A stretch of 64,000 bases of DNA. Origin: Solirubrobacterales bacterium (GTDB lineage: Bacteria > Actinomycetota > Thermoleophilia > Solirubrobacterales > 70-9). The position numbers and the translations under genes were made by a program. The notes under the pieces were generated by a model, which was not told where the DNA came from, did not search any database, and saw nothing but the letters and a program-made list of their open reading frames with translations. Shown piece by piece: positions 10,842 through 41,175 of the stretch; the first letter of the stretch is position 1, and every line of letters begins with the position of its first letter. The stretch spans positions 52,686 through 116,685 of the forward strand of contig DATANV010000015.1 of NCBI GenBank assembly GCA_036266075.1, in the 5' to 3' direction.

Positions 10842-10873
10842 TGATGGGCGCGGCTGGGTTCGAACCAGCGACC
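10842..10873. repeat. 32-bp direct repeat (partner of 9880-9911), overlapping the tRNA-Val 3' half
   Basis: Exact match to 9880-9911. Confidence 0.9.
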
Positions 10874-13483: not shown

Positions 13484-13772
13484 GATCGAGAGCGGACCGT
13501 GCTAGGCGGGGAATCAGCGGTGCCCTGTAACCCGCAATCCGCTCTAGCGGGGCCGAAAGCCGTTCTGAGGGGCTGGCCGTCGGGGTCGGTCCGCCGCAGG
13601 AGGCGTTGACGGCCGGGTCCTGCGCGACGTGGGCACGCGAACCAGGTCAGATCCGGAAGGAAGCAGCCTTAAGCGGAAGCCGCGGGTGCCGCAGGCGAGC
13701 CCGACCCGAGCCAAGCGCGGCGGATACGCCCGGGGACCACGTTTCGAAGGCGGTCGCACGGTCCATTTCATC
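13484..13772 (+). ncRNA. ffs: Signal recognition particle RNA, large Bacillus-type (with Alu domain)
   Basis: Domain IV core CCAGGTCAGATCCGGAAGGAAGCAGCC lies at about 13641-13667. The 5' segment GGACCGTGCTAGGCGGGGAATCAGCGGTGCCCTGTAACCCGCAATCCGCTCTAGCGGGGCCGAA resembles the B. subtilis scRNA Alu domain. The terminal helix is GGACCGTGC (13494) / GCACGGTCC (13756-13764). Confidence 0.8.
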
Positions 13773-19568: not shown

Positions 19569-21257
19569 GTGCCGCCGTCCAGCGACTCGACCTCTCTATA
19601 CCGCCGCCATCGCCCGGGATCCTTCGACGAGGTGGTCGGCCAGCAGCACGTGGTCCGCACGCTGCGCAACGCGGTCGAGCAGGGCAAGGTCCACCACGCT
19701 TACCTTTTCGTCGGCTCGCGCGGGACCGGCAAGACCTCGATGGCAAAGATCCTCGCCCGCTCGCTCAACTGCGAGCGCGGCGGGCCCACCGTCACCCCCT
19801 GCGGCGAGTGCGAGTCCTGCCTGACGATCGCCGCCGGCACCTCGATGGACGTGATCGAGATGGACGCCGCCTCCAATCGCTCGGTCGACGACGTTCGCGA
19901 CCTGCGCGAGCGGGTCGCCTACGCCCCGGCCGGCGGCCACTGGAAGGTCTACATCCTCGACGAGGCGCACATGCTGACCAAAGAGGCGTGGAACGCCTTC
20001 CTCAAGACCCTCGAGGAGCCACCGCCCAACACGGTCTTCGTCCTCGCCACCACCGAGTCGCACAAGGTGATGGCGACGATCGCCGATCGCTGCCAGCGCT
20101 TCGACTTCCAGCGCCCCTCCCTCGAGCAGATCTCCGAGGTCCTGCAGCGCGTCGCCGCCGCGGAGGAGATCGAGATCGAGGACGGTGCGATCTCGCTGAT
20201 CGCCCGCTCCGCATCCGGCAGCTTCCGCGACGCCCTCGGCACCCTCGACCAGCTCGTTTCCTTCGGTGGGGCCGACTCCGGCGAGGCCCGGATCGGCGTC
20301 GACGCCGTGATCGACCTGCTCGGAGCCGCTGACGCCGACCTGCTCTTCGACGCCGTCGACGCGGTCGCCGCCGAAGACCCCAAGACCGTTCTCCTCAAGG
20401 TCGATGAGATGTCCCGCTCCGGCCGCGACCCGACCCAGTTCGCCCGCGACCTCCTCGCCCACCTCCGCCACCTGCTGGTCACGCAGACCGTCGGCGAGGC
20501 TCCCACTAGCTTCGTCATCACCGCCACCGACGCCGGCCGGCTCACCGCCCAAGCAACCGCGCTCGGCGCCGCAACCCTCGTCCGCACCATCGACGAGCTT
20601 TCCGCAGCCCTGACCGCCGTCCGCGAGGGCGACGACGCCCGCATGGCGGTAGAGATCGCCCTGCTGAAAGCAGCCCGCCCCGACCTCGACCCCTCGACCG
20701 AGGGCCTCCTCCGCCGCATCGAGCGACTAGAGCAGGGTTCTGGACAGCCGGCCAAGGCCCCGATCCCCGCCTCAGCTTCCCCCGTAGCGACGGAGCCTGC
20801 TTCGCCCGACCCGGAGGAGCGCGCAGCCCAAGCAGAGCCCCCCTCTCCATCCTCGACAGGCCCCGCGGCCCAAGCGCCTGCGGATCTGGACCTCGAGCAG
20901 GTTGTGCGCGTCTGGCCCGCCGTGCTCGATCAGTTGATGCAATCCGCTCCGGCTCTCGCCGCTTCGTTCGACGGCGCCCGTCCGATTGCGGTCGACGCCG
21001 GCGAGAAGACCGTGACTGTCGGCTTTCCAGCCGACCACACCTTCAACAAGCGCAAGGCCGAGGTGCCCGACAAGCGGGAGCAGCTCGCGGCGGCGCTCGA
21101 GACCGTGCTCGGCCAGAGGCTGGCGCCGGTCTACGAGGTGCTGGACGGCGAGGTCGGGCCTGAGGCAGAGGGCGCGGGCGAGAGCGGGAAGGACGTCGAT
21201 GCCGCATCCTTGGTGGAGCGGATCAAAAGCGAGTTCGACGCTGAGGAGGTCGGTTAG
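19569..21257 (+). CDS. dnaX: DNA polymerase III subunits gamma/tau
   Basis: YRRHRP..F.EVVGQQHVV..L, GSRGTGKTS, and the zinc module CGECESC. Confidence 0.93.
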   Translation: MPPSSDSTSLYRRHRPGSFDEVVGQQHVVRTLRNAVEQGKVHHAYLFVGSRGTGKTSMAKILARSLNCERGGPTVTPCGECESCLTIAAGTSMDVIEMDAASNRSVDDVRDLRERVAYAPAGGHWKVYILDEAHMLTKEAWNAFLKTLEEPPPNTVFVLATTESHKVMATIADRCQRFDFQRPSLEQISEVLQRVAAAEEIEIEDGAISLIARSASGSFRDALGTLDQLVSFGGADSGEARIGVDAVIDLLGAADADLLFDAVDAVAAEDPKTVLLKVDEMSRSGRDPTQFARDLLAHLRHLLVTQTVGEAPTSFVITATDAGRLTAQATALGAATLVRTIDELSAALTAVREGDDARMAVEIALLKAARPDLDPSTEGLLRRIERLEQGSGQPAKAPIPASASPVATEPASPDPEERAAQAEPPSPSSTGPAAQAPADLDLEQVVRVWPAVLDQLMQSAPALAASFDGARPIAVDAGEKTVTVGFPADHTFNKRKAEVPDKREQLAAALETVLGQRLAPVYEVLDGEVGPEAEGAGESGKDVDAASLVERIKSEFDAEEVG

Positions 21258-21587
21258 GTGGCTAGAGGCGGGCCCGGGGGCTTCGACGTGAACGCCCTGA
21301 TGAAACAGGCACAGCAGATGCAGCAACAGATGGAGCAGGCCCAGGAGCAGCTGAAGGACGAAGTCGTAGAGGCAAGCGCCGGTGGCGGCATGGTCAAGGT
21401 GAAGATGGGTGGCGACCTGACCCTGCGCGAGATCGTCATCGACCCCGAGGCGGTTGATCCGGAGGAGGCGGAGATCCTGGCCGACATGGTCCAGGCCGCG
21501 GTCAACGAGGCGCTGCGCGCCGCCCAGGACTTGGCCGGCTCGAAGATGGGCGGGATCACCGGCGGTCTCGGCCTCCCCGGACTCTGA
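21258..21587 (+). CDS. ybaB: Nucleoid-associated protein YbaB/EbfC
   Basis: MKQAQQMQQQMEQAQEQL...GGGMVKV. Sits in the conserved dnaX-ybaB-recR order. Confidence 0.9.
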   Translation: MARGGPGGFDVNALMKQAQQMQQQMEQAQEQLKDEVVEASAGGGMVKVKMGGDLTLREIVIDPEAVDPEEAEILADMVQAAVNEALRAAQDLAGSKMGGITGGLGLPGL

Positions 21588-21652
21588 GCGGTGCGGAGGA
21601 AGCGTGCATATCTGACTCTTCGCGACCGGAGCACCGGCGAAGTCCGGTTGCC

Positions 21653-22255
21653 ATGAGCGGCGAGGGCCCGGCCCCGCTCTCCCGCCTCGTCGCAGAGCTG
21701 TCGCGGCTGCCGGGGATCGGCCAGCGGACCGCGCAGCGACTCGCCTTCCATATCCTGCGGGCACCGGACGAAGAGGCGGATGCGCTGGCGACGGCGATCC
21801 GCGAGGTCAAGGAGAAGGTCGGCCTCTGCGAGCGGTGCTTCAACCTCGCCGAGGGTCCGCTCTGCCGGATCTGCTCGGACCCCAATCGCGACCAGGCGAC
21901 GATCTGCGTGGTCGAGGAGCCGGCTGACGTGATCCCGATCGAGCGCACGCACGAGTACCGCGGCCTTTACCACGTGCTGGGCGGTGCGCTCTCGCCGATC
22001 GACGGGATCGACGCCGGCGACATCAAGGTTGCCGAGCTCTTGCAGCGGGTCGAGGCGGGTGGCGTGCGCGAGGTCGTGCTCGCCACCAACCCGACCACCA
22101 CCGGCGAGGCGACGGCCCTGCACATCGCCGAGCTGCTACGCGGCAAGGCGGCGGTCACGCGCCTCGCCAGCGGGCTGCCGATCGGCGCCGACCTCGAGCA
22201 CGCCGACGAGGTCACCCTGGGTAAGGCGCTGACCGGCCGGCGCGCGCTGGACTGA
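21653..22255 (+). CDS. recR: Recombination protein RecR
   Basis: LPGIGQRTAQRLAFH, zinc finger C..C...C..C, and the Toprim segment ICVVEEPADV. Confidence 0.93.
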   Translation: MSGEGPAPLSRLVAELSRLPGIGQRTAQRLAFHILRAPDEEADALATAIREVKEKVGLCERCFNLAEGPLCRICSDPNRDQATICVVEEPADVIPIERTHEYRGLYHVLGGALSPIDGIDAGDIKVAELLQRVEAGGVREVVLATNPTTTGEATALHIAELLRGKAAVTRLASGLPIGADLEHADEVTLGKALTGRRALD

Positions 22256-23167: not shown

Positions 23168-24016
23168 ATGCTGCGCATGCCGGGGATCCGAACCAACGCC
23201 GCCGCAGAAGTTCTGGGGGTCAGCCCCAACACGCTGCGCAGCTGGGAGCGCCGTTACGGCTTCCCAGTGCCGAAGCGCACGCCCGGCAACCACCGCAACT
23301 ACGAGCTGGTCGAGCTGCAGACGCTGCGCGACGCCCTCGCCGAGACCGGCAACATCTCCTCGGCGATCGAGCTGGCGCGCCAGCGCCAGGCGGCACCGGC
23401 CAGCGGCGGCGGCCTGCTCTTCGCCTTCGAGGCCTTCGACGAGGACGCCGCCGACCGCGTCGTCGAGGAGAGCCTGGCGCTGCGTCCGCTGGAGCGCACG
23501 GTCGAGGAGATGCTGCTGCCGGCGGTCGACCGGCTCGCCGGCGCCCCCGACCGCGAGGCCGAGTTGGAGTTCGCCGCCCGCTGGGCGACCGGGTGGCTGC
23601 ACGGCGCCCGCCGCCTTGCCTCCACCGCCTCGCGCCCGGCCGGCATCCTGCTGCTCGACGCGAGCCGCGGCGCGGCCGCCGAGGAGGTCCACGCGCAGGC
23701 GCTCGACCTCGCTCTGCGCCGTGCCGGCTTCCGAGTCCTGATGCTTTCCGACGGGCTGGGGGAGGAGCGGATGGAGCGCGCGCTGCGCGCCCTCGACCCG
23801 ACCGCGATCGTCCTCTGCGGTCCCGGCGCCGACACCCCGACCGCAGTCCAGCTCGTCCGCAAGATCCGCGAGGCGGGCTTCGACGCGCCGCTCTTCGGCT
23901 TCCGCGCCAGCGGCCTGATCGGCGACGCGATTCCCAGCGCCGGCGAGCGTCCCAGCCAGGTCACCGGAATGCTCAACGCGGACCTCCGCCGCCGCGCCTC
24001 CCAGGCCTTCGCCTAG
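23168..24016 (+). CDS. MerR-family regulator with B12-binding-like C-terminal domain (LitR/CarH-like)
   Basis: N-terminal HTH AAEVLGVSPNTLRSWERRYGFPVPKRTPGNHRNY. C-terminal Rossmann-like segment ILLLDASRGAAAEEVHAQALDLALRRAGFRVLMLS...AIVLCG. Confidence 0.65.
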   Translation: MLRMPGIRTNAAAEVLGVSPNTLRSWERRYGFPVPKRTPGNHRNYELVELQTLRDALAETGNISSAIELARQRQAAPASGGGLLFAFEAFDEDAADRVVEESLALRPLERTVEEMLLPAVDRLAGAPDREAELEFAARWATGWLHGARRLASTASRPAGILLLDASRGAAAEEVHAQALDLALRRAGFRVLMLSDGLGEERMERALRALDPTAIVLCGPGADTPTAVQLVRKIREAGFDAPLFGFRASGLIGDAIPSAGERPSQVTGMLNADLRRRASQAFA

Positions 24017-24066
24017 CCGCCGCCTCTCCCCAAGCCGCCCGTGAGGCCTCGCCCCTTCGCGCCGAC

Positions 24067-24119
24067 GGGACGCGCCGGTAGTTAACCACCATATGGGTAG
24101 TTAACTACCGGCGCGTCCC
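24067..24119. repeat. 53-nt palindrome (20-bp perfect arms) in the MerR / PstS-like intergenic region
   Basis: GGGACGCGCCGGTAGTTAAC (24067-24086) / GTTAACTACCGGCGCGTCCC (24100-24119), with loop CACCATATGGGTA. Confidence 0.9.
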
Positions 24120-24157
24120 GCCCGTGGCGGGTCTCGGATGGCCGCTTTCGCTCCCAC

Positions 24158-24256
24158 GTAACCGTTCTGTCACCAAACGGCAACGATCCGGTGACACCGT
24201 GGATATGGCCATGTAACAGGCTCGTAGAAGTTCCGTGAACCGGCTTGACAGAGCCG
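24158..24256 (+). promoter_or_regulatory. Array of 11-nt phased direct repeats (GTnACn), PHO-box-like, with TTGACA at 24245-24250
   Basis: Consecutive 11-mers: GTAACCGTTCT, GTCACCAAACG, GCAACGATCCG, GTGACACCGTG, GATATGGCCAT, GTAACAGGCTC, GTAGAAGTTCC, GTGAACCGGCT, TGACAGAGCCG. The array ends ~50 nt upstream of the ATG at 24308. Confidence 0.55.
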
Positions 24257-24307
24257 TATTCCGCCTAGAACGCTGCCGCCGCAACCACGGTTCAGTCAAG
24301 AAAGGAA

Positions 24308-26197
24308 ATGACTCGGATGAGCCATATTCACAGTGTGCCTCGAAGAGGTGCGCACGGCGGCATGGCGGGATTGGTCGCCATCGCGGTGGCCGCGCTGGCG
24401 GCGATCGTTATGGCGCCTGCCGCCCAGGCCGAATTCAGCCTCGCCAAATGCGAGGGCACCAACATCACCGGCGAAGGCGCCTCTTTCCAGAAAGAAGCGC
24501 AGGAACTCTTCAACGAACACTTCGGTCCCGACTATTGCTTCGGCACCGGCGGCGAAGGTCTCAGCGTCACCTACAAACCGGAAGGCAGCGGCGCCGGCAT
24601 CAAAGCGGCCCAGCTGCGCGAACGGCCGGCGCGCTTCGGGGCGACCGACGACCCGCCGACCCCGGCGCAGGTCGCGATCATGAACTCGGGCGGTAAAGAA
24701 GAAGCCGGCAAAGTCGTCGCCGACACCGACCCGAATGACGATGCCAAAGTGCACGTCGTGCCGATCGCCGTCGGTGCCGTCGCGCCGTTGGTGAATCTGC
24801 CCGAGGGCTGCAACGTCGAACTGCTCAAAGACGAATACCGCACGGTTTCGAAAGCGGAAATCGAAGCGACGCCGGCCAAGAAAGGCCTGCTGCGGATCCG
24901 CATGCCGAAGACGGTGTTCGAGAAAGTCTGGGGCTTCGAAGCGGGCTTCCAGACCTGGGACACGGCCTTCCCCGAACTGGCGGCCGACAGCGACTGCCAG
25001 AAACCGATCATTCGCGTCGTCCGCTTCGACCAGTCCGGCACGACGTTTGCCTTCAAGAGCTACCTGAACGCGATCAACCCGAGCCGCAACTGGCTCACCA
25101 CCTACGCGACCGGCGCCAACGAAACCAAGGAGTGGCCCGGCGCCGAATACGGCTCGGGGGGGCAGTGCGGCGGAACCGCGGCTCCCGGCAAAGGCGCCGA
25201 TGCCACCGACCACCTGACCAGCGGTTGCGCCAACGGCAACGGCAAACTCGTGCCGGTCCTGCAGGCGACCGACGGCTCTATCGGCTATTCGGACCTGGCG
25301 ACTGCCCGCTCCCTGGGCGTGCTCGTCAACCCGGCCGGCGTCGAAGCGCCGACGACCCCCTACTGGACGCAGGTGCAGAACGGCGAAGGCAACTTCACCG
25401 AGCCGACCTTCTCGGCCACCGGTTATCAGACCGCTGGCGCGCGCGGGTCGAACTGCAAATCGGTGACCTTCACCGGCATTCCGAGCGGTGAACACGCGAC
25501 GTTCGAAGATTGGTCCAAAGCCAGCGGCGTCAACTCGCCGCAGGGCTTCGGGATCTGCACCCTGACCTACGCCCTGCTGTTCGACGACAACGCTGCCGCC
25601 TACGGCGCCAGCGGTGCCGAGGAAGCCAAGGCCCGCACGGCTAAGGACTACTTCGCGAACGTCGTCGGCGTTGGCATGCAGGGTCAGTTGTTCGGCCGCG
25701 ACTACGCCGCGCTGCCCGAATCGATCCGCCAGATCGCCCAAACCGGCGTCAACGAAATCGGCTGGAACAAGGCCAACGAAAAAGGCAACGAACCGGAAGA
25801 AACGCCGAAAGGCGGGGAGGAAAAAACGACCCCGACGCCCCCGCCTCCGGTCGCACCGCCGAGCAACGACATCACCCTCGGCCGCACGACGGTCTCCTCG
25901 AAAACCGGTTCGGCGAGCCTCTCGGTGAACCTGCCGGCTGCCGGCAAGCTAGACGTGCTCGGCACGGCAAGAGTCGGCAAAAAGAAGATCAAAGTGGGTC
26001 ATCTCGTTCTCACCGCCGCTGGCCCGGGCAACTACAAGGTGACGCTGAAGCCGAACGGCGCTGCCAAGCAGGCCCTGAGAAAAGCGGGCAAGCTGGCGGT
26101 GACGCTGACGCTCACCTTCACCCCCGACGGTGGCGCGGCGAGCACCAAGACGCAGAGCGTGATGCTGAAGCTGGCCGTCAAGAAAGGCCACGGATAG
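24308..26197 (+). CDS. Secreted PstS-family (phosphate/anion-binding PBP) protein fused to a basic C-terminal module
   Basis: Signal peptide ...APAAQA. PstS-like motifs EGSGAGIKAAQ...FGATDDPP and FDQSGTTFAFKSYL. Pro/Glu linker, then ...ASLSVNLPAAGKLDVLG...GNYKVTLKPNGAAKQALRKAGKLAVTLTLTFTPDGG. Confidence 0.75.
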   Translation: MTRMSHIHSVPRRGAHGGMAGLVAIAVAALAAIVMAPAAQAEFSLAKCEGTNITGEGASFQKEAQELFNEHFGPDYCFGTGGEGLSVTYKPEGSGAGIKAAQLRERPARFGATDDPPTPAQVAIMNSGGKEEAGKVVADTDPNDDAKVHVVPIAVGAVAPLVNLPEGCNVELLKDEYRTVSKAEIEATPAKKGLLRIRMPKTVFEKVWGFEAGFQTWDTAFPELAADSDCQKPIIRVVRFDQSGTTFAFKSYLNAINPSRNWLTTYATGANETKEWPGAEYGSGGQCGGTAAPGKGADATDHLTSGCANGNGKLVPVLQATDGSIGYSDLATARSLGVLVNPAGVEAPTTPYWTQVQNGEGNFTEPTFSATGYQTAGARGSNCKSVTFTGIPSGEHATFEDWSKASGVNSPQGFGICTLTYALLFDDNAAAYGASGAEEAKARTAKDYFANVVGVGMQGQLFGRDYAALPESIRQIAQTGVNEIGWNKANEKGNEPEETPKGGEEKTTPTPPPPVAPPSNDITLGRTTVSSKTGSASLSVNLPAAGKLDVLGTARVGKKKIKVGHLVLTAAGPGNYKVTLKPNGAAKQALRKAGKLAVTLTLTFTPDGGAASTKTQSVMLKLAVKKGHG

Positions 26198-26198
26198 C

Positions 26199-28220
26199 GT
26201 GAGCAATAGCGCCGGAAGCAGTCGGCGCCCGGCGCTGAAGAAGCCCCAGGTGGACTTCCGCGACGTCGCCCGTAGCATGGGCGGCGTCGCGGCCTCCGCC
26301 GGGCGCTGGCTCGCACGGGACCCGATCAACACGGTCCTGATCGTCGCCTCGATCGGGTTGACGATCCTCTTCTTCACCCTGCTCGGCGACATCCAGCCGA
26401 GCTCCAGCGGCACCCGGGTGCCGCTCAGTCGCGTCGAAAAGCTCGCCAAGGAAAAGCAGATCGAACTGGCGACGCTCCTCGACCAGGACTCGCGGGTCGT
26501 GGTCGACACCAAGGAAGGCCTCGAACTCTACGCCGCCTACCCGAAGTCCGATGCGGAGACCTCCAATCTTCTGAAGCAGCTGACCAGCGGCGGTGCTGTG
26601 GTCGAGATCGACCAGCAGTCCGACAAGCCGTCGAAGCAGATCATGGTCCAGTTCCTGATCCCGATCCTGCTGTTGGTCTGCCTCTTCGTGCTCTTCACCC
26701 GCCTCGGTCAGGACGCGGGAGCGGGCGCCTTCGCGGGCTTCTCGAAATTCACCGGCAAGGGCCGCAAGCGCAAGGCTGGCGCCCCCGGGCGCACGACCTT
26801 CGAAAACGTCGCCGGCGCCGGCGAAGCGGTGGCCGAGCTGCGTGAGATCCGCGACTACCTGGCCGAACCGGGCAAATACGCGAAAGTCGGCGCCCGTGCG
26901 CCGAAGGGCGTGCTGCTGGTCGGCCCCCCTGGCACCGGCAAGACGTTGCTCGCCAAGGCGACCGCCGGCGAGGCCGACGCCGCGTTCTTCTCGCTTTCCG
27001 GCTCGGACTTCGTCGAGTCGCTGGTCGGCGTCGGCGCTGCCCGCGTCCGCGACCTCTTCGCCAAAGCCCGCAAGCAGGCGCCGGCGCTGGTCTTCATCGA
27101 CGAGCTCGACGCCGCCGGGCGAAAGCGCGGCGCCGGCGTCGGCCAGGGCAACGACGAGCGCGAGCAGACGCTGAACGCGCTCCTCGTCGAGATGGACGGC
27201 TTCGGCGGCGACGCCGGCATCGTCGTCCTTGCCGCCACCAATCGCCCGGATGTCCTCGATCCGGCGCTGCTGCGCCCCGGTCGCTTCGATCGCCAGGTGA
27301 CGGTCGACGTGCCCGACGTCCACGGCCGCCTCGACATCCTCGCCTTGCACTGCGGCAACCGGCCGCTGGCGCCGGGTACCTCGCTGGAGGAGATCGCCAA
27401 GCTGACCTCGGGCTTCAGCGGTGCCGAGCTGGCCAACGTGATCAACGAGGCGGCGCTGCTGACGGTGCGCGAAGGGCGGGTCGAGATGGACCAGCCGACG
27501 CTCGAGGAGGCGATCGACCGAGTCGTTGCCGGCCCGGCCCGTAAGAGCCACGTGCTGAGCGCCGAGGAGCGCTGGGTGATCGCGATCCACGAGTCGGCGC
27601 ACGCGGTTGTCACCCGCTCGATCGGCCAGAAGGTCTCGGCCCAGAAGCTCTCGATCGTCGCCCGCGGGCGCCAGCTCGGCACCGCCGCCCACATGCTGAC
27701 CGACCGCGACGCGGTCGTTATGCAAGAGCCCGACTTGCGCCGCCACCTGATCGCGATCGTCTCCGGCTTCGCCGCCGAGCTGCTCGAGTTCGGCGTTGTC
27801 TCCAGCGGTGTCCACGACGACCTGCATGCGGCCACCGGGTTGGCGCGGCAGATGGTCACCTCCTACGGCATGTCGCCGGCACTCGGCCCGGTGACGATTG
27901 GCGAGAAAGCCGGCGAGGTTTTCCTCGGCGCCTCGCTGCAGGAGCTGGGCTCGGTCGGCCCGGCGACGCTGGAGTTGATCGACCGCGAGGTCGAGCGCCT
28001 CGTCAAGGACTCGGTCGCGCAGGCGGAGGACATCCTGCGACGCAACTGGAACGCGGTGTATGAGACCGCCAACGCACTGGTCGAGCAGGAGACGCTTTCG
28101 GGCGTCGCCCTCGACGCCGTCCTCTCGACGGTGCAGCCGACGCTGCTCTCCTTTGCCCGGGAGGAGGACGGCGAGACCGGCGAAGGCGCCGAGAGGGAGG
28201 CGCAGGCCAAGCGTGAGTAG
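26199..28220 (+). CDS. ftsH: ATP-dependent zinc metalloprotease FtsH
   Basis: Two TM segments flank a periplasmic domain. Walker A GPPGTGKT, Walker B FIDELD, SRH region, zinc site HESAHAV. The GTG start is 1 nt after the upstream stop. Confidence 0.92.
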
Positions 28221-29841
28221 ATCGGCGACACTGGCGCTCGCGTCGGTCGCCGCCATCGTTCTTGCGGCATTGGTCGCCCCCGGCATGGCGTCGGGGGCGC
28301 TGATCTGGCGCCTGGAGCAGCCGCCTCCGCCGGCGGGAGTGCCGTTCAAGGTGCCTCTGGGGGCGCCGGGAGACCTCTCCTTCTGGGCTCCCAACAGGGG
28401 CCTGCTCAGCGTCGAAGGCAACAGCACGATCCCGCGCGGCCTCTTCAGCTGGAACGGTCAGAGCTGGCATCAGCTGGCGACCGTCTGCGGCGGGCCGGGA
28501 GACACGGCGCGGATCGCCTGGGCGGGCCCCGACGAGTTCTGGGTCCTCAGCGAACCGAGCCAGCCCCGGGCCGGCTCCGGCCTGGCTCTTTGCCGCTTCA
28601 AGGATGGCCAGGTGGTGGGCTCGTGGAGCACCCGGGTCGACGCCGCCGACCCATTCCGACAGATGCGCTCGGCCGCCTGCAACGGTGCAAACGACTGTTG
28701 GTTCGGCGGGGTCGGCTCCCAGGACGCCCTGGGCGAGCGGGTCGGCGCCTTTCACCTGCACTGGAACGGCAGCACGCTGGAAACCGTCTACGGGCCTCAG
28801 GGCCGGGCGGTCAGCGACATGGAGTTCCAGGCGGGCACGCTCTACGAGAGCACCTATGTCGGCAAGGCGGCCGAAGATCGCGTCGACCCGGTCGACCTCG
28901 CTGATCCGGAGCCGGTGCCGAGCCTTATCCACACCGTCGCCGGTCACAGCTTCGCGAACGATCCCTTCCTGCCGGCGCCCCACCCGGGCGTGCCCGAAGA
29001 CGGCACCGAGCTGCTGGCTCTCGACGGCGACGGCACCGACCTCTGGGCGGTTGGCGGCGGCGCTGCCTCGGGCCCTTCGGCGCCATCCGAAGGGGCGGTC
29101 GAACGCGCGCCCCTGGCCGCTCGCCTGGTCGCTGGCTCGTTCCAGGAGCTGAGCTTGAGCGGCGACGCCACCTTCGGGCCGACCGATCGCTTCGGTGACG
29201 TCGCCGCGATGCCCGGCAGCAGCGACGCGATGGTCACCGTCGTCCCCTACGACGAGCGGCGCAGCACCAACAGCAAGGCGATCGTCGCCAGCGTCGCCGC
29301 CGACGGGACCGTCTCGACGACAACGCTGCCCGCTTCGGGTGCCGGCCGCGGCAGCGCCGCCCGGATCGCCTGCCCGGCGCCGAACGACTGCTGGCTGGCG
29401 ACCTGGGCCGGTTGGCTCTTCCACTACGGCGATGGCACTCCGCAGCCGCTCGACACCGATCCCTTCTTCGAAGGCACGATCGAGTTCCGCCCCAACGAGG
29501 CGGCCGAACAGTTCATCCCCGACGTCCTGCCCGAAGACGACTCCCAGCTCTTCGCGCCGCCGCCGGTCGAACTCGAACAGGCGGCCGAATCGAGAACCCA
29601 CGTCAAGCGCCTGCCGCCGCTGCTGCGCAACGTGCATTCGCGACTGCGGGGCCTGACGTTGATCGTCACCTTCACGGTGACCCGCCGCGCCCGCGTCCAG
29701 CTGCTCGCCAAGCGCCGTGGCAAGACCGTGGCGCGGACGCCTCAGCGCACCTTCGCGCCTGGGCACCGGCGGCTGAGCCTGCATCTGAGTCGCGACCGCT
29801 ACCCGACTAACCTCGCCTTCCGCGTGAAGGCCCTCAAGTGA
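28213..29841 (+). CDS. Secreted protein with propeller-like (Ycf48/BNR-type) repeats and basic C-terminal module
   Basis: The GTG at 28213 overlaps the ftsH stop by 8 nt. Signal peptide [29 protein letters not shown]-terminus ...LTLIVTFTVTRRARVQLLAKRRGKTVA...GHRRLSLHLSRDR. Confidence 0.7.
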   Translation: MSRSATLALASVAAIVLAALVAPGMASGALIWRLEQPPPPAGVPFKVPLGAPGDLSFWAPNRGLLSVEGNSTIPRGLFSWNGQSWHQLATVCGGPGDTARIAWAGPDEFWVLSEPSQPRAGSGLALCRFKDGQVVGSWSTRVDAADPFRQMRSAACNGANDCWFGGVGSQDALGERVGAFHLHWNGSTLETVYGPQGRAVSDMEFQAGTLYESTYVGKAAEDRVDPVDLADPEPVPSLIHTVAGHSFANDPFLPAPHPGVPEDGTELLALDGDGTDLWAVGGGAASGPSAPSEGAVERAPLAARLVAGSFQELSLSGDATFGPTDRFGDVAAMPGSSDAMVTVVPYDERRSTNSKAIVASVAADGTVSTTTLPASGAGRGSAARIACPAPNDCWLATWAGWLFHYGDGTPQPLDTDPFFEGTIEFRPNEAAEQFIPDVLPEDDSQLFAPPPVELEQAAESRTHVKRLPPLLRNVHSRLRGLTLIVTFTVTRRARVQLLAKRRGKTVARTPQRTFAPGHRRLSLHLSRDRYPTNLAFRVKALK

Positions 29842-32800
29842 GCGGACCCGGGCAGGCCGGGCGCCTGATCGGCGCCGGGCTCGCCTTCCTGCTGGCAATC
29901 GCGCTCGCCCTGGCGACGGCCACCCAGGGCAGCGGTGCCGCCGCCCCCGGCGGCGTCGGTCCGCTGCCGCTGCTCGGCGTCGCCGATGCGCAGATGAGGC
30001 TGATGGGCACGGCGTCGGGGGGCGAGGCTTGGGGCTATCGGCAGCTGCCGCTCGCAGTCGGCGGGGTCGAAGCCGGCACGCGCCAAGTCCCCTTCGGCCC
30101 CCCGCAGGACAGCTCCGGCACGTCCCTGCAGCTCGCCTTCTTGCGCTACACGGAGGGCAACGGCTGGCGGGTCTTCGAGACGCCGGTCGACCGCAACGGC
30201 AACCCCTACCGGGGACCCGTCCCCAACCCGCTTTCGGCGCGGATCACGCCAAACGGGGGAGGGGTCCTGCTGGGCCGCGACGCGCACCGGCTGCCGAGCG
30301 ACCAGGTCGTCGTCCTCGATCACGACCCGGGCGGCTCGTGGCGGGCGCTGCCGACGCCGCCGTCCTCGGTGCTGTTGCCGGCCGAAGGCGAACGGCCGGC
30401 CGAGGCGCTCGCCGCCGATCACGGCTCGGGGGCCGTCGCGGCTGCCGCCTTCGACGAAGGCGGCCACACGGGGCTCTTCTTTGCCCCCCAGGAACGCTCG
30501 GTCGCCGATGCGGTGATCCATTTCGACGGCAGCGAATGGACTCGCGAGAAGGTCAAAGTGCCGGCGGGCTCCGAATCCGAATTCCATATCCTGGCGATCG
30601 CAGCCACCGGAGCCGGCAACGCTTGGGCGATCGCCGCGGCGGCCCCGATGCTCAAACGCTCCTTCGTCCTGCTGCAGCGCACCGCCGGCCCGGAAGGTCC
30701 CGAATGGGTCGAGCGCGGGATCGGCGCCGCGCGCTTCGCCGACGCCGACACACCGGAATTCGGGATCGAAGGTCTGGCGCCGATCGGGGGCGCCGCCCAA
30801 CCCCTGACCGTCACCCAGGACGGTGTCTGGATCGACCTCACGGCGAAGTTCGAAGGCGTCTCCAGCGACGCGACGGTCTACTACGACATCGGCGCCGGCG
30901 CGGTGATCGGCTCGTGGTGCGACGCGGACGCCTGCGACGAAGCCTTCGGGGCGAAGCTCTCGCGGCAGAGTGGCTATCGCAGCTTCGCCTGGCCCGGCTC
31001 GGGCTTCGGAACGCGGATCGTCACCAATCCGCTCGAACCTGGCGGCGGCGAAGAAAGCAACCGCGGCACCTACCTGCGGTTCGACGGTGGGGCATTCGCT
31101 CGGGTCCCCGGCGGCGGCGGCAACTTCCACGCGGGCGGGGCCTTCTCGAGCGTCGACAGCGGCTGGCTCGAGGGACCGGTCGAGATCTCCGCCAAGCGCG
31201 CGCCGGAAGCGCTGCGGCCCTGGCCGGTGACCCTGCGGGCGCCGCTCGCCGACGTCACCGGCGCCCCCGGGCAGCCGCCGGGGGCGCTCGGGTCGCAGGC
31301 GCTGGCGGTGGGCGCGAACGGCGCGGTCGCCCGCTACACGCCGGGGCGCGGCTGGCGGCGCGAGTACCTGACCACCGCCAGCGGCTCGGTCAGCAAGGCG
31401 ACGCTGCGCGGCGTCGCCTGGCCCGAACCGAATCACGCCTACGCCGTCGGCGACCTCGGCGCGATGTGGCAGTGGAACGCCGACGACGGCCTCTGGATCG
31501 CCGATCCCGGCGTGCCGATCGGCTTCGAAGGCAACCTGATGGACATCGCCTTCGATCCGGCCGACGCCAGCCGCGGCTACGCCGTCGGCAAGCACGGCGT
31601 CCTGTTGCGCTTCGAAAAGAGCTGGGAACCGCAGGCGCTGCCGCCGGGCTTCGACAGCGCCGATCTGACTTCGATCGCCTTCGCCGGCCGCGAGGCGATC
31701 GTCGCCGCCGGTGGCGATCTGCTGGTCAACGAGGGGGGCGTTTGGCAGGTCGATCCCTCCGCCCAGGCGTTGCTGGACAGCGTCCGCGCCGGCAATCCGA
31801 AGCTGCTTGCCGTCGCCGGCCTGCCCGACGGCGGAGCCGTCGCCGCAGGGCGCGACATCGTCATCGAGCGCGACGGCGGGCCGGGTTCGCCCTGGCGCTT
31901 TTCCAAGCAGCCGATCCTCGGCTCGACTGCGATTGCCGCCGCCGCGGTGCGGACCGACGCCGGCGTACGGGCGATCCTCTCCGTCGTGCCCCAGCTGGCC
32001 TACCCGCCGGCCGACGAACTGCCGCCCGAAGACCCCAACGTGCCGCCGCCGATCCTGCCGCCGTTCGCCCTGCCTGGTGACGGATACGTCCTGCGCGAGA
32101 CCTTCGACGGCTGGCAGGACGAGCAGCGCACCGCCTTCGCCGGCACCGGCTCGGACCGGCCGATCAAGAGCGACCCGACGACCGCCTTCCTGCTCGACTC
32201 GGCCGGCAACGGCTGGGCGGTAGGCGGCTGGAGCGGCGACGGCGACGCCAGCGGGCGCGGCTCCTCGGCCCGCGGTGGCGAAGGCGGCGCCCTGCGGGCC
32301 CGCGTGCGAACTGCGTCGATCGCCCGCTTTGGCGACGGTGCCGCCCCGCCGCCCGTCGAGCGCTCGGCGCCGGTGGCAGTGCCCGCCGGTCCAGCCCGCT
32401 TCGCCGTCGCCGGCAACGCTCAGTGCGAGCAGCCCTGCGCCGACCTGGCGCCCGAGGCTCTCGGGCCCGACCGCACGCTGGCTGTCGCCCTCGCCATGAT
32501 CAACGCGATGCGCGGCGGTGCCGGCCCGCGAGCCCTTCTCTACACCGGGAACCGCGTCGCGACCGGCCTCGACTTCGCCGACGGCGAACGCTACGCGGCC
32601 CTGCTGGGTGGGGTGCCGGGCCTGCCCGTCTTCCCGGCGCTGGGCTCCAGCGACGTCGGCGACGGCACTGGCAGCGACGCCTTCGCAGCTTCCTTTGCCG
32701 GCTTCCCGGCGCCGCTGGGCTCCGGCGCATCGCCACCGGGGATCTCCGTCGCAGGCATCCCCGGCGCCGCGCCAGGCCCTGGCGCCCGCACCCACTACGC

Positions 32801-34277
32801 CTTCGACAGCAGCGGCGACGGCGGCACCGTACGGATCGTCGTGATCGACAACTCGCGCGGCTCGCTGGCCGCCAGCGATCCCTTCCAGAACCCGTCCGAG
32901 GCACAGCTGCCCTGGCTCGAATCGGTGCTCGCCGATGCCCGAGCCAAGGGCATCCCGGTCGTCGTGATGGGCAACCGCAGCCTCAACTCCAGCTTCACGC
33001 CGAAGCTGAACGTGGCCAGCGACGCCGGCACTGTGGCGCGGGCACTGGTCGACGGCGGCGCCTCGGCCTACCTCTTCGATCGCCCGGAAGAGAACCGGGC
33101 GATGAGCATCCCGGCCGGTGGCTCGACGACGATCCCCAGCTGGGGCACGGGCACGCTCGGTTACCGCTCGCCGATCTCCGGCGCCGTCGGCCTCGAAGCC
33201 GCCGACTCGCTGTTCGGCGACAGCGGTTTCCTGTTGCTCGAAGTGAACGCCGCCCAGCGCGACCCCGCCAGCAACCGGGCGCCGGTAGGGGTGCGGCTGG
33301 TCCCGGTGATCCAGGACCTCTCGCTGGAAGCGATCGACGGCACCCTTCTGCACCGCTCGATCCCGGCGCTGTTCAGCGGCCTCGGCCGCCGGCCGCTCGG
33401 CGGCGACCGCTGGGGCGCCGCCGCTGCGGGCTCCTCGATCCCCAGCCCGGCCGGCGGCGACCCCTACACGCTCTTCCCGCCTGAGCCCTGCCTGGTCGCC
33501 GGCTGCGCCAACCGAGTCTCGCCGGAATACAGCTTCACCTCCTCGGATCCCGATATCGCCGACTTCGTCCGCCAGGACCCGAACTCGAACAACCTGCGCA
33601 AGCCCTTCCTCGACGCCAACGGCAAGGTCGCCACCGACAACTCCTCAGGCCTGCTCTGCCCGTTCAACGCCGGCACGACGACGGTCACCGTCAGCGCCGG
33701 CGGGCTCTCCTACTCCGAACAGGTGACTGTCCAGGGCGGCAGCGTGCAGCGCCCCTGCGGCACCCGGCCGCTGCGACCTGACCGCTTCGCGCGCAACGCG
33801 CCGGCTGCCGCGCCGCCGGCGCCCCCGCCGGCTCCCGCCCCCGCCGGCAGCCCGCCGGTCGAGTTCACGCCGCCGTCGCCTCCGCCCGCCTCGCCGGCGC
33901 CCCCGCCTCCGCCTAACCCAGTCCACGTCGTTCCGAACCCGCCCCTGGCGCCCGCCTTCTTGCCGGTCACCGCGGGCCTGATCGCCACCGTGCCGGCGGC
34001 GCTGTTGCCGCCGCCGCCGCCGGTAGTGCGGCCGCTGCCGCCAGGCGGCGCCCCGGCCCGCACCTACCAGGTCGAGGAACGCCGCGAAGAGGAGGCGGCG
34101 ACCGAGGAGTCGCAGGCCTTCTCACGGCACGAGCCCGGCGGCGAGGGCGCCGCCGTGCCGCCCTACCTGCCGGCGCTCGTCCTGCTGCTGGCACTCGGCG
34201 CCGCCTCGGTCCGCGGCGGCGGCGGCCGCCGCCGCGCGGTCGCAACAGCCAACGCTGCCTCTTTCCGTCGTCGCTGA
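29838..34277 (+). CDS. 1479-aa exported multidomain protein: propeller-like repeats, degenerate metallophosphoesterase-like domain, Big_2 Ig-like domain, Pro-rich stalk, C-terminal TM anchor
   Basis: GTGA overlap with the upstream stop. Signal peptide present. The metallophosphoesterase-like region FAVAGNAQ...LLYTGNRV...PALGSSD...HYAFD...VVIDNS...QLPWLE...VVVMGNRS has ligand positions substituted. Big_2-like SFTSSDPDIADF...NAGTTTVTVSAGG. Then PPAPPPAP... and PPYLPALVLLLALGAASVRGGGGRRR. Confidence 0.75.
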   Translation: MSGPGQAGRLIGAGLAFLLAIALALATATQGSGAAAPGGVGPLPLLGVADAQMRLMGTASGGEAWGYRQLPLAVGGVEAGTRQVPFGPPQDSSGTSLQLAFLRYTEGNGWRVFETPVDRNGNPYRGPVPNPLSARITPNGGGVLLGRDAHRLPSDQVVVLDHDPGGSWRALPTPPSSVLLPAEGERPAEALAADHGSGAVAAAAFDEGGHTGLFFAPQERSVADAVIHFDGSEWTREKVKVPAGSESEFHILAIAATGAGNAWAIAAAAPMLKRSFVLLQRTAGPEGPEWVERGIGAARFADADTPEFGIEGLAPIGGAAQPLTVTQDGVWIDLTAKFEGVSSDATVYYDIGAGAVIGSWCDADACDEAFGAKLSRQSGYRSFAWPGSGFGTRIVTNPLEPGGGEESNRGTYLRFDGGAFARVPGGGGNFHAGGAFSSVDSGWLEGPVEISAKRAPEALRPWPVTLRAPLADVTGAPGQPPGALGSQALAVGANGAVARYTPGRGWRREYLTTASGSVSKATLRGVAWPEPNHAYAVGDLGAMWQWNADDGLWIADPGVPIGFEGNLMDIAFDPADASRGYAVGKHGVLLRFEKSWEPQALPPGFDSADLTSIAFAGREAIVAAGGDLLVNEGGVWQVDPSAQALLDSVRAGNPKLLAVAGLPDGGAVAAGRDIVIERDGGPGSPWRFSKQPILGSTAIAAAAVRTDAGVRAILSVVPQLAYPPADELPPEDPNVPPPILPPFALPGDGYVLRETFDGWQDEQRTAFAGTGSDRPIKSDPTTAFLLDSAGNGWAVGGWSGDGDASGRGSSARGGEGGALRARVRTASIARFGDGAAPPPVERSAPVAVPAGPARFAVAGNAQCEQPCADLAPEALGPDRTLAVALAMINAMRGGAGPRALLYTGNRVATGLDFADGERYAALLGGVPGLPVFPALGSSDVGDGTGSDAFAASFAGFPAPLGSGASPPGISVAGIPGAAPGPGARTHYAFDSSGDGGTVRIVVIDNSRGSLAASDPFQNPSEAQLPWLESVLADARAKGIPVVVMGNRSLNSSFTPKLNVASDAGTVARALVDGGASAYLFDRPEENRAMSIPAGGSTTIPSWGTGTLGYRSPISGAVGLEAADSLFGDSGFLLLEVNAAQRDPASNRAPVGVRLVPVIQDLSLEAIDGTLLHRSIPALFSGLGRRPLGGDRWGAAAAGSSIPSPAGGDPYTLFPPEPCLVAGCANRVSPEYSFTSSDPDIADFVRQDPNSNNLRKPFLDANGKVATDNSSGLLCPFNAGTTTVTVSAGGLSYSEQVTVQGGSVQRPCGTRPLRPDRFARNAPAAAPPAPPPAPAPAGSPPVEFTPPSPPPASPAPPPPPNPVHVVPNPPLAPAFLPVTAGLIATVPAALLPPPPPVVRPLPPGGAPARTYQVEERREEEAATEESQAFSRHEPGGEGAAVPPYLPALVLLLALGAASVRGGGGRRRAVATANAASFRRR

Positions 34278-34284
34278 CGACGCG

Positions 34285-34740
34285 GTGAGCAAATCGCCGC
34301 GAAATCTTAGTGAGGGAGGCTTCGCGCTAGATCTGCGCTTGACCGTGCGGGCAAGGAGTACAAGAGACGTCGACATCGAGTGGCGTGCCAACGAGGCCGA
34401 GTTGCTCGATGCACTGCTCGACGCGACGAGTCACGATGCAGGCGACTTCTTCGTTTATCTCATTGAGAGGGTCGGCGCACCCGAGGACCTCCTGGGCGGC
34501 AGTCACCGCTTCCGGGTTTCGGCATCCTTGGCAGGACGTCCCTTCGAGATGTTCCTGCTCGATGTCGGCTTCCGAGCCGATGACGCGCTTGCCACCGAGA
34601 TCCTTCGCACCGAAGATCTCCTCAGCTTTGCGGGAATCGAGCCAGTCGAGGTCGACGCGATCTTGGCTGGTGATGTCCCAGCCGGGAGATGGGATTCCGA
34701 CGGCCGACGCTGGGTGCTCAGCGAATCCGCTCGGGGCTGA
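34285..34740 (+). pseudogene. Truncated AbiEii/AbiGii-family nucleotidyltransferase toxin fragment
   Basis: EGGFALDLRL...RSTRDVDIEW resembles the GGTAL...R.T.DiD motif. It is only 151 aa, lacks the usual N- and C-terminal parts, has lower GC, has no AbiEi partner, and overlaps the convergent gene's 3' end. Confidence 0.5.
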
Positions 34741-35065: not shown

Positions 35066-35146
35066 GTCGCCATAGCGTTTCTGACCCGTCTGGCGATGCG
35101 GTGAACCCGGTGTGTCGAAATTGAGAAAATTTGGATAACTGCGGGC

Positions 35147-41173: not shown

Positions 41174-41175
41174 CC

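Follow-up and report, generated by a model that had tools for sequence, protein, structure and literature searches.

The window analysed here, a 64-kb stretch of DNA (64,000 nt) from a member of the Solirubrobacterales, contains a conserved island of about 22 kb that comprises the p679-p672 pair, a gene for a PstS-like protein, ftsH, two genes for giant proteins, a gene for a bare winged-helix regulator and pstSCAB. The genes are laid out as follows.

23168-24016: gene for a CarH/LitR-like MerR-family protein, conserved immediately upstream of the cluster
24317-26197, plus strand: 626-aa PstS-like substrate-binding protein that carries a signal peptide and is extended at its C terminus (Pfam PBP_like_2)
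26199-28220, plus strand: FtsH, starting at GTG 26199 or ATG 26278 (TIGR01241, 635 bits; cut-off 600)
28221-34277, plus strand: two large conserved proteins of unassigned function, about 540-590 aa and 1479 aa
34718-35065, minus strand: 115-aa OmpR/PhoB-type winged-helix protein (Pfam Trans_reg_C, PF00486, 7e-19)
35147-39159, minus strand: p672 (35147-37165) and p679 (37162-39159), two proteins of about 670 aa with a weak PD40 match only
39363-43037, plus strand: pstS (39363-40175), pstC, pstA and pstB, assigned by Pfam, NCBIfam and the gene order in loci L095-L097

The PstS-like protein retains the phosphate-binding motifs of PstS, as seen when a profile of 30 homologues was aligned to solved PstS structures; this profile was required, a phmmer search of the PDB with the protein having returned no match, and the protein scores under the NCBIfam PstS cut-off. 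Its start is more likely the ATG at 24317 than the ATG at 24308 chosen in an earlier note on this DNA, given the Met-Ser conserved in 30 homologues. The gap to ftsH is at most 80 nt. Over the best tblastn segments, FtsH is 73-97% identical to its counterparts, and synteny is kept wherever a locus extends far enough to cover ftsH; an exact-protein look-up of FtsH read from GTG 26199 found no record, and the annotated start probably differs. The reading frame of the first large protein (28060-29841) overlaps the end of ftsH, hence its uncertain start, and the 1479-aa protein shows a weak BNR/Ycf48-like match. That FtsH and the large proteins lie downstream of the array, as the earlier note had it, reflects a gene order conserved in relatives, in most of which p679-p672 lies directly upstream of the eight-unit array (synteny table). 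Near the array, dnaX and recR are also found, and conserved genes of unassigned function follow pstB. Complete MAG chromosomes with this cluster include OY970074.1, OY970339.1, OY969915.1 and OY969721.1. The island thus ties a probably essential protease and uncharacterised surface proteins to phosphate transport.

The eight-unit array and the adjoining predicted promoter

The array and the elements between it and the PstS-like gene are the following.

24158-24245, plus strand: eight contiguous 11-nt units, 88 bp
Units 1-4 (starts 24158, 24169, 24180, 24191): GTAACCGTTCT / GTCACCAAACG / GCAACGATCCG / GTGACACCGTG
Units 5-8 (starts 24202, 24213, 24224, 24235): GATATGGCCAT / GTAACAGGCTC / GTAGAAGTTCC / GTGAACCGGCT
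24245-24250, plus strand: TTGACA, predicted −35 hexamer, sharing its first T with the end of unit 8
24269-24274, plus strand: AACGCT, predicted −10 hexamer, 18 nt past TTGACA, with A at position 2 and T at position 6
24275-24316, plus strand: conserved leader, GGTTCAGTC(A/G)A plus the Shine-Dalgarno sequence GAAAGGA (24300-24306), delimited by alignment

The division of this DNA into 11-mers from 24158 onwards, first made in the earlier note, was borne out: there are exactly eight contiguous units with the consensus G-[T/A]-n-A-[C/A]-n4-[T/C]-[G/T], and their phasing is kept in orthologues. Although GTNAC occurs 132 times in the window, the four that fall within 24100-24310 (24158, 24169, 24191 and 24213) all share the same 11-nt phase, and no second place in the 64 kb has four copies within 99 nt. 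Four in-phase copies were reached in none of 300 first-order Markov random sequences of 64 kb, and three in-phase copies in five of them. Using a unit-scoring matrix that was trained on orthologues, with the window left out, we obtained scores of 3.0 to 10.5 for the eight units, all of them reaching roughly the 99th percentile of the background or more, compared to −9.4 and −12.8 for the flanking eleven-mers.

The same periodicity is evident among relatives. In 75 orthologous upstream regions, the distances between GTNAC pairs are concentrated at 11 (59 pairs), 22 (46), 33 (28), 44 (39) and 55 nt (15), any other distance being represented by at most two pairs, and the coding-sequence controls are flat. 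Across 68 anchored orthologous loci, the array is kept unit by unit, with sharp edges on both sides; conservation sets in abruptly at unit 1 and continues in a fixed register through to the −10 region, and in L007, a relative, the array is shorter by precisely one 11-nt unit. This anatomy, with direct units every 11 nt and pair distances that are multiples of 11, agrees with the earlier assignment to the tandem direct-repeat operators of the OmpR/PhoB family, the generic form of which has at least two contiguous direct repeats at 10-11 bp. Judged by its sequence, the segment 24158-24245 is a strongly conserved predicted docking site for a PhoB/OmpR-type regulator in Solirubrobacterales. The 'spacer' bases are also strongly conserved in a unit-specific manner (e.g. 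GACGATCTG in unit 3 and GTAGAAGTCCT in unit 7), which exceeds the need of one repeated specificity and may reflect a second factor or a requirement for DNA shape.

The region could be explained without any bound protein, as a structured RNA leader or as a pattern produced by chance or base composition, and the units are indeed only weakly alike, Tandem Repeats Finder reported nothing for 23900-24400, and a long inverted repeat (24066-24120) lies just upstream. However, the blank report is not counted against the array because the units, which agree at just about 5 of 11 positions, are too divergent for this program. The inverted repeat is not conserved, relatives carrying other hairpins in its place, and was rejected as a component of the array; we regard it as a feature of its own, probably a terminator for the gene that precedes it. 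When 30 orthologues were folded together with RNAalifold, neither a consensus structure (−0.12 kcal/mol) nor any covarying pair emerged, on which ground the RNA-leader idea was discarded, and Rfam at gathering thresholds recognised no family here, its matches in the window being just SRP RNA and tRNA located elsewhere. Given also that an order-wide, strict 11-nt register cannot come from chance, this explanation is effectively refuted by the orthologue phasing, the RNAalifold result and the random-sequence test, and we assign it a negligible probability. The idea of DnaA boxes or iterons was likewise dropped, the units being unlike TTATCCACA-type boxes and the arrays being located at promoters of the pst cluster.

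The TTGACA that the earlier note had placed at the end of the array is identical in all 30 orthologues aligned, with maximal information content. The AACGCT hexamer matches TATAAT at two positions; a scan for the sigma-70 consensus calls no promoter, and what is found is an nAnnnT hexamer 18 nt past a conserved TTGACA that abuts the array, with the A-A...T columns conserved at a fixed distance. We infer from this arrangement that TTGACA and AACGCT are the −35 and −10 elements of a predicted promoter, whose transcription start would be expected near 24281; that of pstS would be expected near 39321.

Arrays at other predicted promoters of the cluster

When the 64 kb was scanned on both strands with the orthologue-trained matrix, only the eight-unit array and two further arrays were picked out, scoring 24-30 compared to a 99.99th percentile of 14. 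The scan extended over approximately 1.3 Mb around this one cluster, and in the roughly 1 Mb of related loci nearly all high scores fall at promoters of the same cluster. The additional elements are listed below.

35101-35144, plus strand: array A, four units, GTGAACCCGGT GTGTCGAAATT GAGAAAATTTG GATAACTGCGG, matrix score 24.3
39188-39220, minus strand: p679-proximal element, GTAACCACTTG GTATCTCCTTG GTCACATCTTT, 11-nt phased, of ambiguous polarity
39244-39287, minus strand: array B, four units, GTGAACGCGAC GTGACTGTCCG GATAAGAACTG GTAACGCAGCC, matrix score 30.0
39309-39314, plus strand: GACACT, predicted −10 hexamer of pstS, 21 nt past GTTCAC

Array A occupies the intergenic DNA upstream of the gene for the 115-aa protein, where it is followed, toward that gene, by 21 nt after its GTTCAC end, AACGCT (35074-35079, minus strand), 8 nt and the ATG. 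Orthologues of array A were found in L056, L081, L082, L093 and L095-L097, and the spacing to the ATG is identical in all four loci that were read. Array B has the highest score in the window and, on the coding strand of pstS, ends in GTTCAC (39282-39287), with no −35 hexamer between this end and GACACT; a GAGACT or GACACT at 21 nt is present in eight of nine pstS loci. In all nine the array is kept upstream of pstS with the same polarity (score of about 30 vs about 1 on the other strand), and it is conserved whether or not p679 is the neighbour of pstS. The p679-proximal element is orthologous to GTAACCACTTGGTAGC....TAGTTACATCTCTGACAC, which is located upstream of p679 in about 40 loci.

The array that the earlier note had reported at pstS is therefore real and conserved, down to the GTTCACC at 39282-39288, but its units run on the minus strand, from 39287 down to 39244. 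This difference in orientation matters for the interpretation. At pstS, the array presents TTCAC toward the gene and its last unit is in the place of the −35 element, whereas the array at 24158 presents GTGAA toward its gene and lies upstream of a consensus −35; because polarity and layout differ in this manner, low-phosphate induction is not simply transferable from pstS to the PstS-like operon. Nor is GTTCACC, the core of Streptomyces PHO boxes, the core of the unit: within the pstS array GTTCAC(C) is confined to the last unit, GTGAAC or GTTCAC is carried by just one or two of the eight units at 24158, and an eight-unit array contains 0.79 copies of GTTCAC on average, exclusively on the opposite strand. 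The same motif at pstS, at the gene for the 115-aa protein and, as a related element, at p679-p672 joins four transcription units, including the PstS-like operon, into one predicted regulon. The membership of pstS and the PstS-like operon in a single regulon, as the earlier note envisaged it, is supported by the conserved motif common to both, with three corrections: the polarity is opposite, the motif is not specific to PHO, and the binder may be the 115-aa protein.

Residues 5-217 of the protein encoded at 23168-24016 can be aligned with structures of Thermus CarH/LitR (E 6e-14), and CarH tetramers occupy sets of three or four 11-bp direct repeats that lie in tandem on one DNA face and overlap the −35 (PMC9304148); an oligomer of the protein encoded here could bind the array and place the operon under light or B12 control. 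The likeness to CarH/LitR operators (nnnnTnnACAn) extends to tandem 11-bp repeats on one face, promoter overlap and the CarH-like gene next door, but the T-n2-ACA signature itself is absent as a repeat, occurring about once per array at a single position and not phased, and a CarH-type operator was rejected on this ground. Furthermore, eight units exceed the capacity of a tetramer, the motif recurs at pstS and at the gene for the 115-aa protein, some 10-15 kb away from the CarH-like gene, and also in pstS loci that have no such gene close by, Pfam finds no B12-binding domain in the protein, and its NCBIfam CarH score is far under the cut-off. We therefore consider control by this protein very improbable.

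Candidate binding proteins

The candidate binder encoded within the cluster is the 115-aa protein, which the earlier note had aptly singled out for binding assays. Its C-terminal winged-helix effector domain is recognised by PF00486 at 68 bits (cut-off 26.2) and matches 48 effector domains in the PDB, including those of VicR, WalR, SaeR, PhoB and MtrA. This domain fills residues 14-110, and no receiver domain with a phospho-acceptor aspartate was found in the protein. Nearly all homologues listed are 105-127 aa long (one has 96 and one 149) and 74-97% identical. The gene is always located within this cluster and has its own array; in each of the contexts retrieved it either diverges from pstS or immediately follows p672. 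We put the chance that this protein is the main occupant of the arrays a little short of even. How phosphate would be sensed in the absence of a receiver is not obvious, and a classical PhoR-PhoP pair elsewhere in the genome may be the true occupant or a co-occupant. The 115-aa protein may act alone, or together or in competition with a PhoP-type response regulator.

Such a two-component regulator could also suffice. Under this alternative, the eight-unit array would be a complex PHO operator whose sole occupant is a phosphorylated response regulator of the PhoP/RegX3 type, the gene for which lies elsewhere; the PstS-like/FtsH operon would be induced together with pstSCAB under phosphate limitation, and the 115-aa protein would be a plain member of the regulon. 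A sensor-coupled regulator accounts for phosphate sensing; pstS is a universal target of PhoB/PhoP and carries a conserved four-unit array, the last unit of which equals the Streptomyces PHO-box core and is in the −35 place (PMC2275107, PMC6988585), and the PstS-like protein has the phosphate-binding motifs. However, no receiver-containing regulator, PhoP included, was seen among the window ORFs scanned, whereas the cluster itself has, beside the arrays, a gene for a dedicated OmpR-type protein. GTGAAC/GTTCAC is also scarce among the eight units, and their polarity and the adjacent consensus −35 are unlike the layout of a PhoB-activated promoter. Control by PhoP alone appears possible but doubtful.

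The motif does not by itself identify PHO, contrary to what the earlier note implied: GTnAC-n6-GTnAC is the published consensus of AfsQ1 and of Streptomyces venezuelae GlnR (PMC6988585, PMC10704036) and fits these regulators equally. The core is common to several actinobacterial OmpR-family regulators, and similarity cannot name the binder. A GlnR-, AfsQ1- or MtrA-like protein that reports nitrogen or cell-envelope status would be in accord with units 1 and 2, which match as GTAAC-n6-GTCAC exactly, as AfsQ1 sites do, although this is a match of sequence only, and with the GAGAA and GATAA units, which resemble the GlnR b-site GaAAc (PMC6988585, PMC10704036, PMC10235972). In Streptomyces, GlnR boxes are also bound by MtrA, which has an effect on phosphate genes (PMC10704036), and a regulon concerned with the envelope could well include FtsH and large surface proteins. 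Nevertheless, all arrays found are in a pstS-centred cluster, none adjoins a nitrogen-assimilation gene in the sequence scanned, the a-b alternation of GlnR boxes is not regular here, and in S. coelicolor neither pstS nor phoRP is bound by GlnR (PMC10704036). Four GlnR protomers are arranged head to tail around the −35 (PMC10235972); the sites of GlnR and AfsQ1 (gTnAc-n6-GaAAc; GTnAC-n6-GTnAC) have the same five-base cores and six-base spacers as the array, which differs from them in having twice the units and a context of phosphate transport rather than nitrogen assimilation or antibiotic clusters. A regulator of this kind is, in our estimate, improbable.

Proposed regulation and comparison with known systems

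Our preferred reading is that 24158-24245 is an OmpR/PhoB-family operator of one phosphate-transporter-centred regulon, with the 115-aa protein as the preferred binder; we give it a probability of roughly 0.55. According to this reading, the 88 bp would present eight contiguous half-sites, one per helical turn on a single face of the DNA, to a winged-helix domain of the OmpR/PhoB family, flush against the −35 of the promoter that is predicted to drive the PstS-like gene, ftsH and the two large genes. Protomers would bind head to tail, the best units being occupied first and the others filled in turn by cooperative extension. For pstS and the gene for the 115-aa protein, the promoter-proximal GTTCAC, 21 nt before the −10, would stand in for the missing −35, and the protein bound there would recruit RNA polymerase in the manner of PhoB. 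At 24158, units that point the opposite way beside a −35 of consensus sequence suggest that the filled array tunes an intrinsically competent promoter, either by hindering polymerase or its upstream contacts or by helping through the alpha subunit; the sequence does not tell the sign.

That the 115-aa protein, rather than a two-component PhoP, is the master regulator is a tentative extension of this reading. If true, the protein would polymerise on four- and eight-unit arrays, activate, from arrays that take the place of a −35, both pstSCAB and its own gene, which would be leaderless, and, through the inverted eight-unit array, set the level of FtsH and of about 4,000 codons of uncharacterised surface proteins. 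The circuit would be of the Pho type and yet independent of phosphorylation, its input being the amount of the regulator or a partner, e.g. a product of the genes after pstB. A receiver-less binder would be an unusual way of running a Pho-type regulon. Thermoleophilia, the Solirubrobacterales among them, are actinobacteria that abound in soil but have seen hardly any experimental genetics, and the arrays provide their first well-supported cis-regulatory code, with exact predicted sites at four promoters.

Regulators without a phosphorylatable receiver that carry an OmpR-type winged helix, as the 115-aa protein does, include the AfsR/SARP proteins, which recognise direct repeats with a spacing of 11 or 22 bp beside the −10, AfsR overlapping the PhoP sites at pstS and competing with PhoP there (PMC10936776), and RoeA of Yersinia entomophaga, a 15-kDa PhoB-like protein (PMC10101115). 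Unlike the SARPs and AfsR, the predicted 115-aa binder is a bare DNA-binding domain, without a BTAD or any extra domain.

The closest parallels are PHO boxes. In Streptomyces, the PHO-box core is GTTCACC (PMC2275107, PMC6988585), and PhoP binds 11-nt direct repeat units, of which at least two are needed and up to five or six occur, with cooperative extension (PMC2275107). The arrays described here are similarly composed of tandem 11-nt units, with poor units between good ones, implying cooperative extension, and are situated upstream of a core Pho gene, pstS, in nine loci, the array in the window ending in GTTCAC(C). They differ from Streptomyces PHO boxes in that eight contiguous units are present at 24158 compared to two to six reported, the consensus is G[T/A]nA[C/A] and not GTTCACC, and the eight-unit array is inverted with respect to that of pstS and precedes a consensus −35. 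Liu, Eder and Hulett reportedly located, in 1998, PhoP repeats on the non-coding strand of the repressed tag promoters. In the pho box of E. coli, PhoB recognises two 7-bp TGTCA-type repeats 11 bp apart, which replace the −35. The arrays at pstS and at the gene for the 115-aa protein resemble this box in reading (G)TCAC on the coding strand and in having the proximal unit in the −35 region, but contain four units instead of two, and the eight-unit array replaces no −35. With four-unit arrays in place of the −35 and, next to a −35 of consensus sequence, an eight-unit array of inverted polarity, this one predicted regulon constitutes a clean natural test of the way in which polarity and copy number determine the output of OmpR/PhoB-type regulators.

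The phased array upstream of the PstS-like gene

From position 24158, in a window with a G+C content of 69%, the DNA parses into consecutive 11-mers exactly as the earlier note had read them, and the TTGACA it reported at 24245-24250 was correctly placed. The observation as a whole is confirmed, with much more force than its author could have known. The array and its upstream neighbourhood are as follows:

10845-10916, minus strand: tRNA gene
13497-13761, plus strand: bacterial large SRP RNA
19569-22255: dnaX, ybaB, recR
23168-24016, plus strand: MerR-family gene, homologue of CarH/LitR (B12-dependent photoreceptor repressors)
24066-24120: almost perfect inverted repeat, arms of 25 nt around a 5-nt loop, CGGGACGCGCCGGTAGTTAACCACC / GGTAGTTAACTACCGGCGCGTCCCG
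24158-24245, plus strand: eight-unit array, in the 300-bp gap between the MerR-family and PstS-like genes

The window contains 132 GTNAC pentamers, four of which (at 24158, 24169, 24191 and 24213) share one 11-nt phase. Nowhere else in the window do four fall within 99 nt, and four in phase at period 11 arose in 0 of 300 random first-order Markov sequences of window length. Tandem Repeats Finder reported no repeat at the array because the units have only about five positions in common, and neither an Rfam family nor a conserved RNA structure was found there. Under a unit matrix whose training set excluded the window, all eight units score 3.0-10.5 and the neighbouring eleven-mers −9.4 and −12.8; therefore, the array extends exactly from 24158 to 24245.

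The PstS-like protein has at least 381 homologues, with the closest database protein coming from a Solirubrobacterales MAG; alignment of 30 homologues points to ATG 24317 as its start, in place of the previously chosen ATG at 24308. A scan covering one genome per species yielded 78 loci from Solirubrobacterales and other Thermoleophilia, with proteins 38-67% identical to that of the window. GTNAC spacing was counted in the 330 nt upstream of 75 orthologous genes; in coding sequence, of which five times as much was taken, the distribution is flat.

GTNAC pairs by distance in the 75 upstream regions
11 nt apart: 59 pairs
22 nt apart: 46 pairs
33 nt apart: 28 pairs
44 nt apart: 39 pairs
55 nt apart: 15 pairs
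any other distance: 2 or fewer

Alignment of 68 loci, anchored on units 7-8, revealed no conservation upstream, an abrupt onset at unit 1 and eight units in fixed register, with the consensus GTGAACnnnnn GTCACCnnCTG GTGACGATCTG GtGAcgnnntt GATAACGnnnT GTAACGnnnnC GTAGAAGTCCT GTGAAnCGGCT, then TTGACAGAGCCATAT. Further 3', conserved A-A...T columns lie 18 nt past the hexamer, followed by a leader, also conserved, that contains GAAAGGA and ATGAGC. One related locus, L007, lacks exactly one 11-nt unit, the outcome predicted by a phasing constraint.

Related arrays and gene context

Both strands of the window were scanned with the orthologue matrix, summing over four phased units (99.99th percentile, 14). 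There were no further sites beyond those listed here, the next-best match being the reverse strand of the eight-unit array:

24158-24245, plus strand: eight-unit array, score 27.0
35101-35144, plus strand: array A, four units upstream of the gene for a 115-aa winged-helix protein (34718-35065, minus strand), score 24.3
39287-39244, minus strand: array B, four units upstream of canonical pstS, score 30.0

Array B is the second array that the earlier note saw near pstS; it is real and conserved, with a polarity opposite to that at 24158. In a metagenome scan with canonical PstS and three locus look-ups, it is kept upstream of pstS with or without other cluster genes adjoining. Its sequence along the coding strand of pstS is GT(A/T)ACCAGTTC TT(A/C)TCCAnnCn GTCACGTCGCG TTCAC, and the polarity is clear-cut: the matrix gives a mean score of about 30 opposite the pstS strand and about 1 on it (9/9 loci). 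GAGACT or GACACT lies exactly 21 nt past GTTCAC in 8/9 loci, all of which lack a −35 hexamer in between. Array A has the same polarity toward the 115-aa gene, where GTTCAC is followed by 21 nt, an nAnnnT hexamer, 8 nt and the ATG in 4/4 loci read; this distance of 35 nt from GTTCAC to the ATG, with the hexamer ending 8 nt short of it, is fixed in four genomes (window 35066-35100) and suggests a leaderless mRNA. The first four units at 24158 resemble the four-unit module found in both array A and array B (GTGAAC / GTsAC..CTG / GaGAmGAtcTG / GtkAC). In two relatives with divergent pstS and 115-aa genes, arrays B and A stand back to back with opposite polarity (L096 7885-7965, L097 7881-7976), so that 4 + 4 units, the same total as at 24158, take up most of the 187 nt between the two genes.

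Upstream of the gene for p679, about 40 loci carry a related phased element (GTAACCACTTGGTAGC....TAGTTACATCTCTGACAC; window copy 39188-39220); p679 and p672 are unknown proteins of roughly 670 aa (37162-39159 and 35147-37165, minus strand). The element lies at about 1720-1850 in loci L015-L078; in L001 and L016, which lack p679 at that place, it still precedes the eight-unit array by ~60-100 nt. The inverted repeat at 24066-24120, just past the MerR-like gene, carries the AT-rich GGTAGTTAAC twice. It was rejected as part of the array, being unconserved, and relatives carry other hairpins there. Its core, TTAACCAC...GGTAG...TAGTTAAC, resembles the p679-upstream element of other genomes; the repeat may therefore represent a remnant of such an element or a terminator. 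An extra three-unit array (GTGACGCCGAG GTGAACGCGAT GTAAAC) stands on the minus strand between the PstS-like gene and ftsH in three related genomes (L007 8007-8050, L014 8005-8048, L017 2283-2326); its polarity is that of the array at pstS, a hint that ftsH may have a regulated promoter of its own in these.

Across the order, the ancestral arrangement is recR, GGDEF gene, MerR-like gene, the p679-type element, p679, p672, eight-unit array, PstS-like gene, ftsH and two unknowns (roughly 540-590 aa, then roughly 1480 aa), beyond which lie a small gene, the 115-aa gene and a divergent pstSCAB with four conserved unknown genes. In the clade of the window, the p679-p672 pair has been relocated and now lies between arrays A and B, so that pstS is divergent from p679. 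The PstS-like protein (626-629 aa) scores below PstS cut-offs, but a profile of its family matches solved PstS structures along GASF, GSGaGI, FGgsDdP, RfDkSGTTF and GSIGY, the motifs that make up the phosphate site in PstS. The ftsH gene follows within 80 nt, and its product exceeds the NCBIfam equivalog cut-off (635 vs 600) and is 73-97% identical across loci (tblastn best segments). The four genes after pstB (43034-46039, plus strand; about 250, 249, 109 and 370-480 aa, two with zinc-ribbon matches) form the same string behind pstB in L096 and L097. Since PhoU is absent, the four could act as partners in Pst signalling in this lineage.

Candidate binders

The 115-aa protein consists solely of a complete OmpR/PhoB effector domain (Pfam match, 7e-19), with residues 14-110 aligning to the DNA-binding domains of VicR, WalR, SaeR, PhoB and MtrA. 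Array A lies directly upstream of its ATG, so no hidden receiver domain is possible. Nearly all of the best 120 homologues have 105-127 aa (one 96, one 149) and are 74-97% identical, a conservation far above that of the PstS-like protein; several share chromosomes with the PstS-like/pstS loci compared. A short ORF overlapping the 3' end of the gene (34285-34740, plus strand; weak AbiEii type IV toxin match) is probably a fragment or spurious.

Because of its gene linkage, its own array and its very high conservation, the 115-aa protein is our first choice as main occupant of the arrays, at a probability of about 0.45. Long gap-free arrays would suit a protein polymerising only via contacts between DNA-binding domains. 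Of all the leads, this receiver-less regulator is the most interesting. Second, more tentatively, comes a PhoP-type response regulator, whose involvement would be compatible with a role of the 115-aa protein; the window ORFs scanned yielded no regulator with a receiver domain. The spacing GTnAC-n6-GTnAC is also the consensus of AfsQ1 and of Streptomyces venezuelae GlnR (PMC6988585, PMC10704036), so that the motif alone cannot name the regulon. Binding by a GlnR-, AfsQ1- or MtrA-like regulator is nevertheless improbable: the gene context points to phosphate, and S. coelicolor GlnR does not bind at pstS or phoRP (PMC10704036). Even less probable is the MerR-family protein encoded upstream, conserved beside the GGDEF gene and recR and, in most loci, ahead of the entire cluster. 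It matches CarH/LitR structures (3WHP and 5C8D, E 6e-14, residues 5-217; no B12-binding domain seen by Pfam), and CarH tetramers occupy tandem repeats of 11 bp, three or four in number (PMC9304148). Yet the CarH signature T-n2-ACA occurs only about once per array, and the arrays recur far from this gene.

Comparison with known operators

The interpretation given in the earlier note holds in part. The claim that the array belongs to one regulon with pstS is borne out by the shared motif conserved upstream of pstS, and a PHO box induced by low phosphate is a plausible reading of the sequence. However, the polarity at 24158 is reversed relative to the pstS array, so induction is not to be assumed. 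At repressed tag promoters, the PhoP repeats lie on the other strand, and in Salmonella reversed PhoP boxes farther upstream are still able to activate. Bacillus subtilis PhoP both represses and activates (tagAB vs tuaA; PMC6232261). A filled array of eight protomers would tune an intrinsically competent promoter, and we slightly favour repression or damping over activation.

The anatomy of the arrays fits the OmpR/PhoB-type class of direct-repeat operators. Streptomyces PhoP binds 11-nt direct repeat units, at minimum two, and extends cooperatively over up to five or six, poor ones included (PMC2275107); four GlnR protomers sit head to tail around −35, contacting RNA polymerase (PMC10235972). 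Receiver-less OmpR-type domains act on repeats spaced 11 bp apart, with sites at pstS that overlap those of PhoP (PMC10936776), and a receiver-less PhoB-like activator of 15 kDa is known (PMC10101115). The pstS and 115-aa genes share the classic activating layout, in which the units read (G)TCAC toward the gene and the proximal unit would replace the −35 element. In contrast, the array at 24158 has reversed polarity, twice the number of units and a putative promoter with a consensus −35. It extends a known class of operator into an unstudied lineage.
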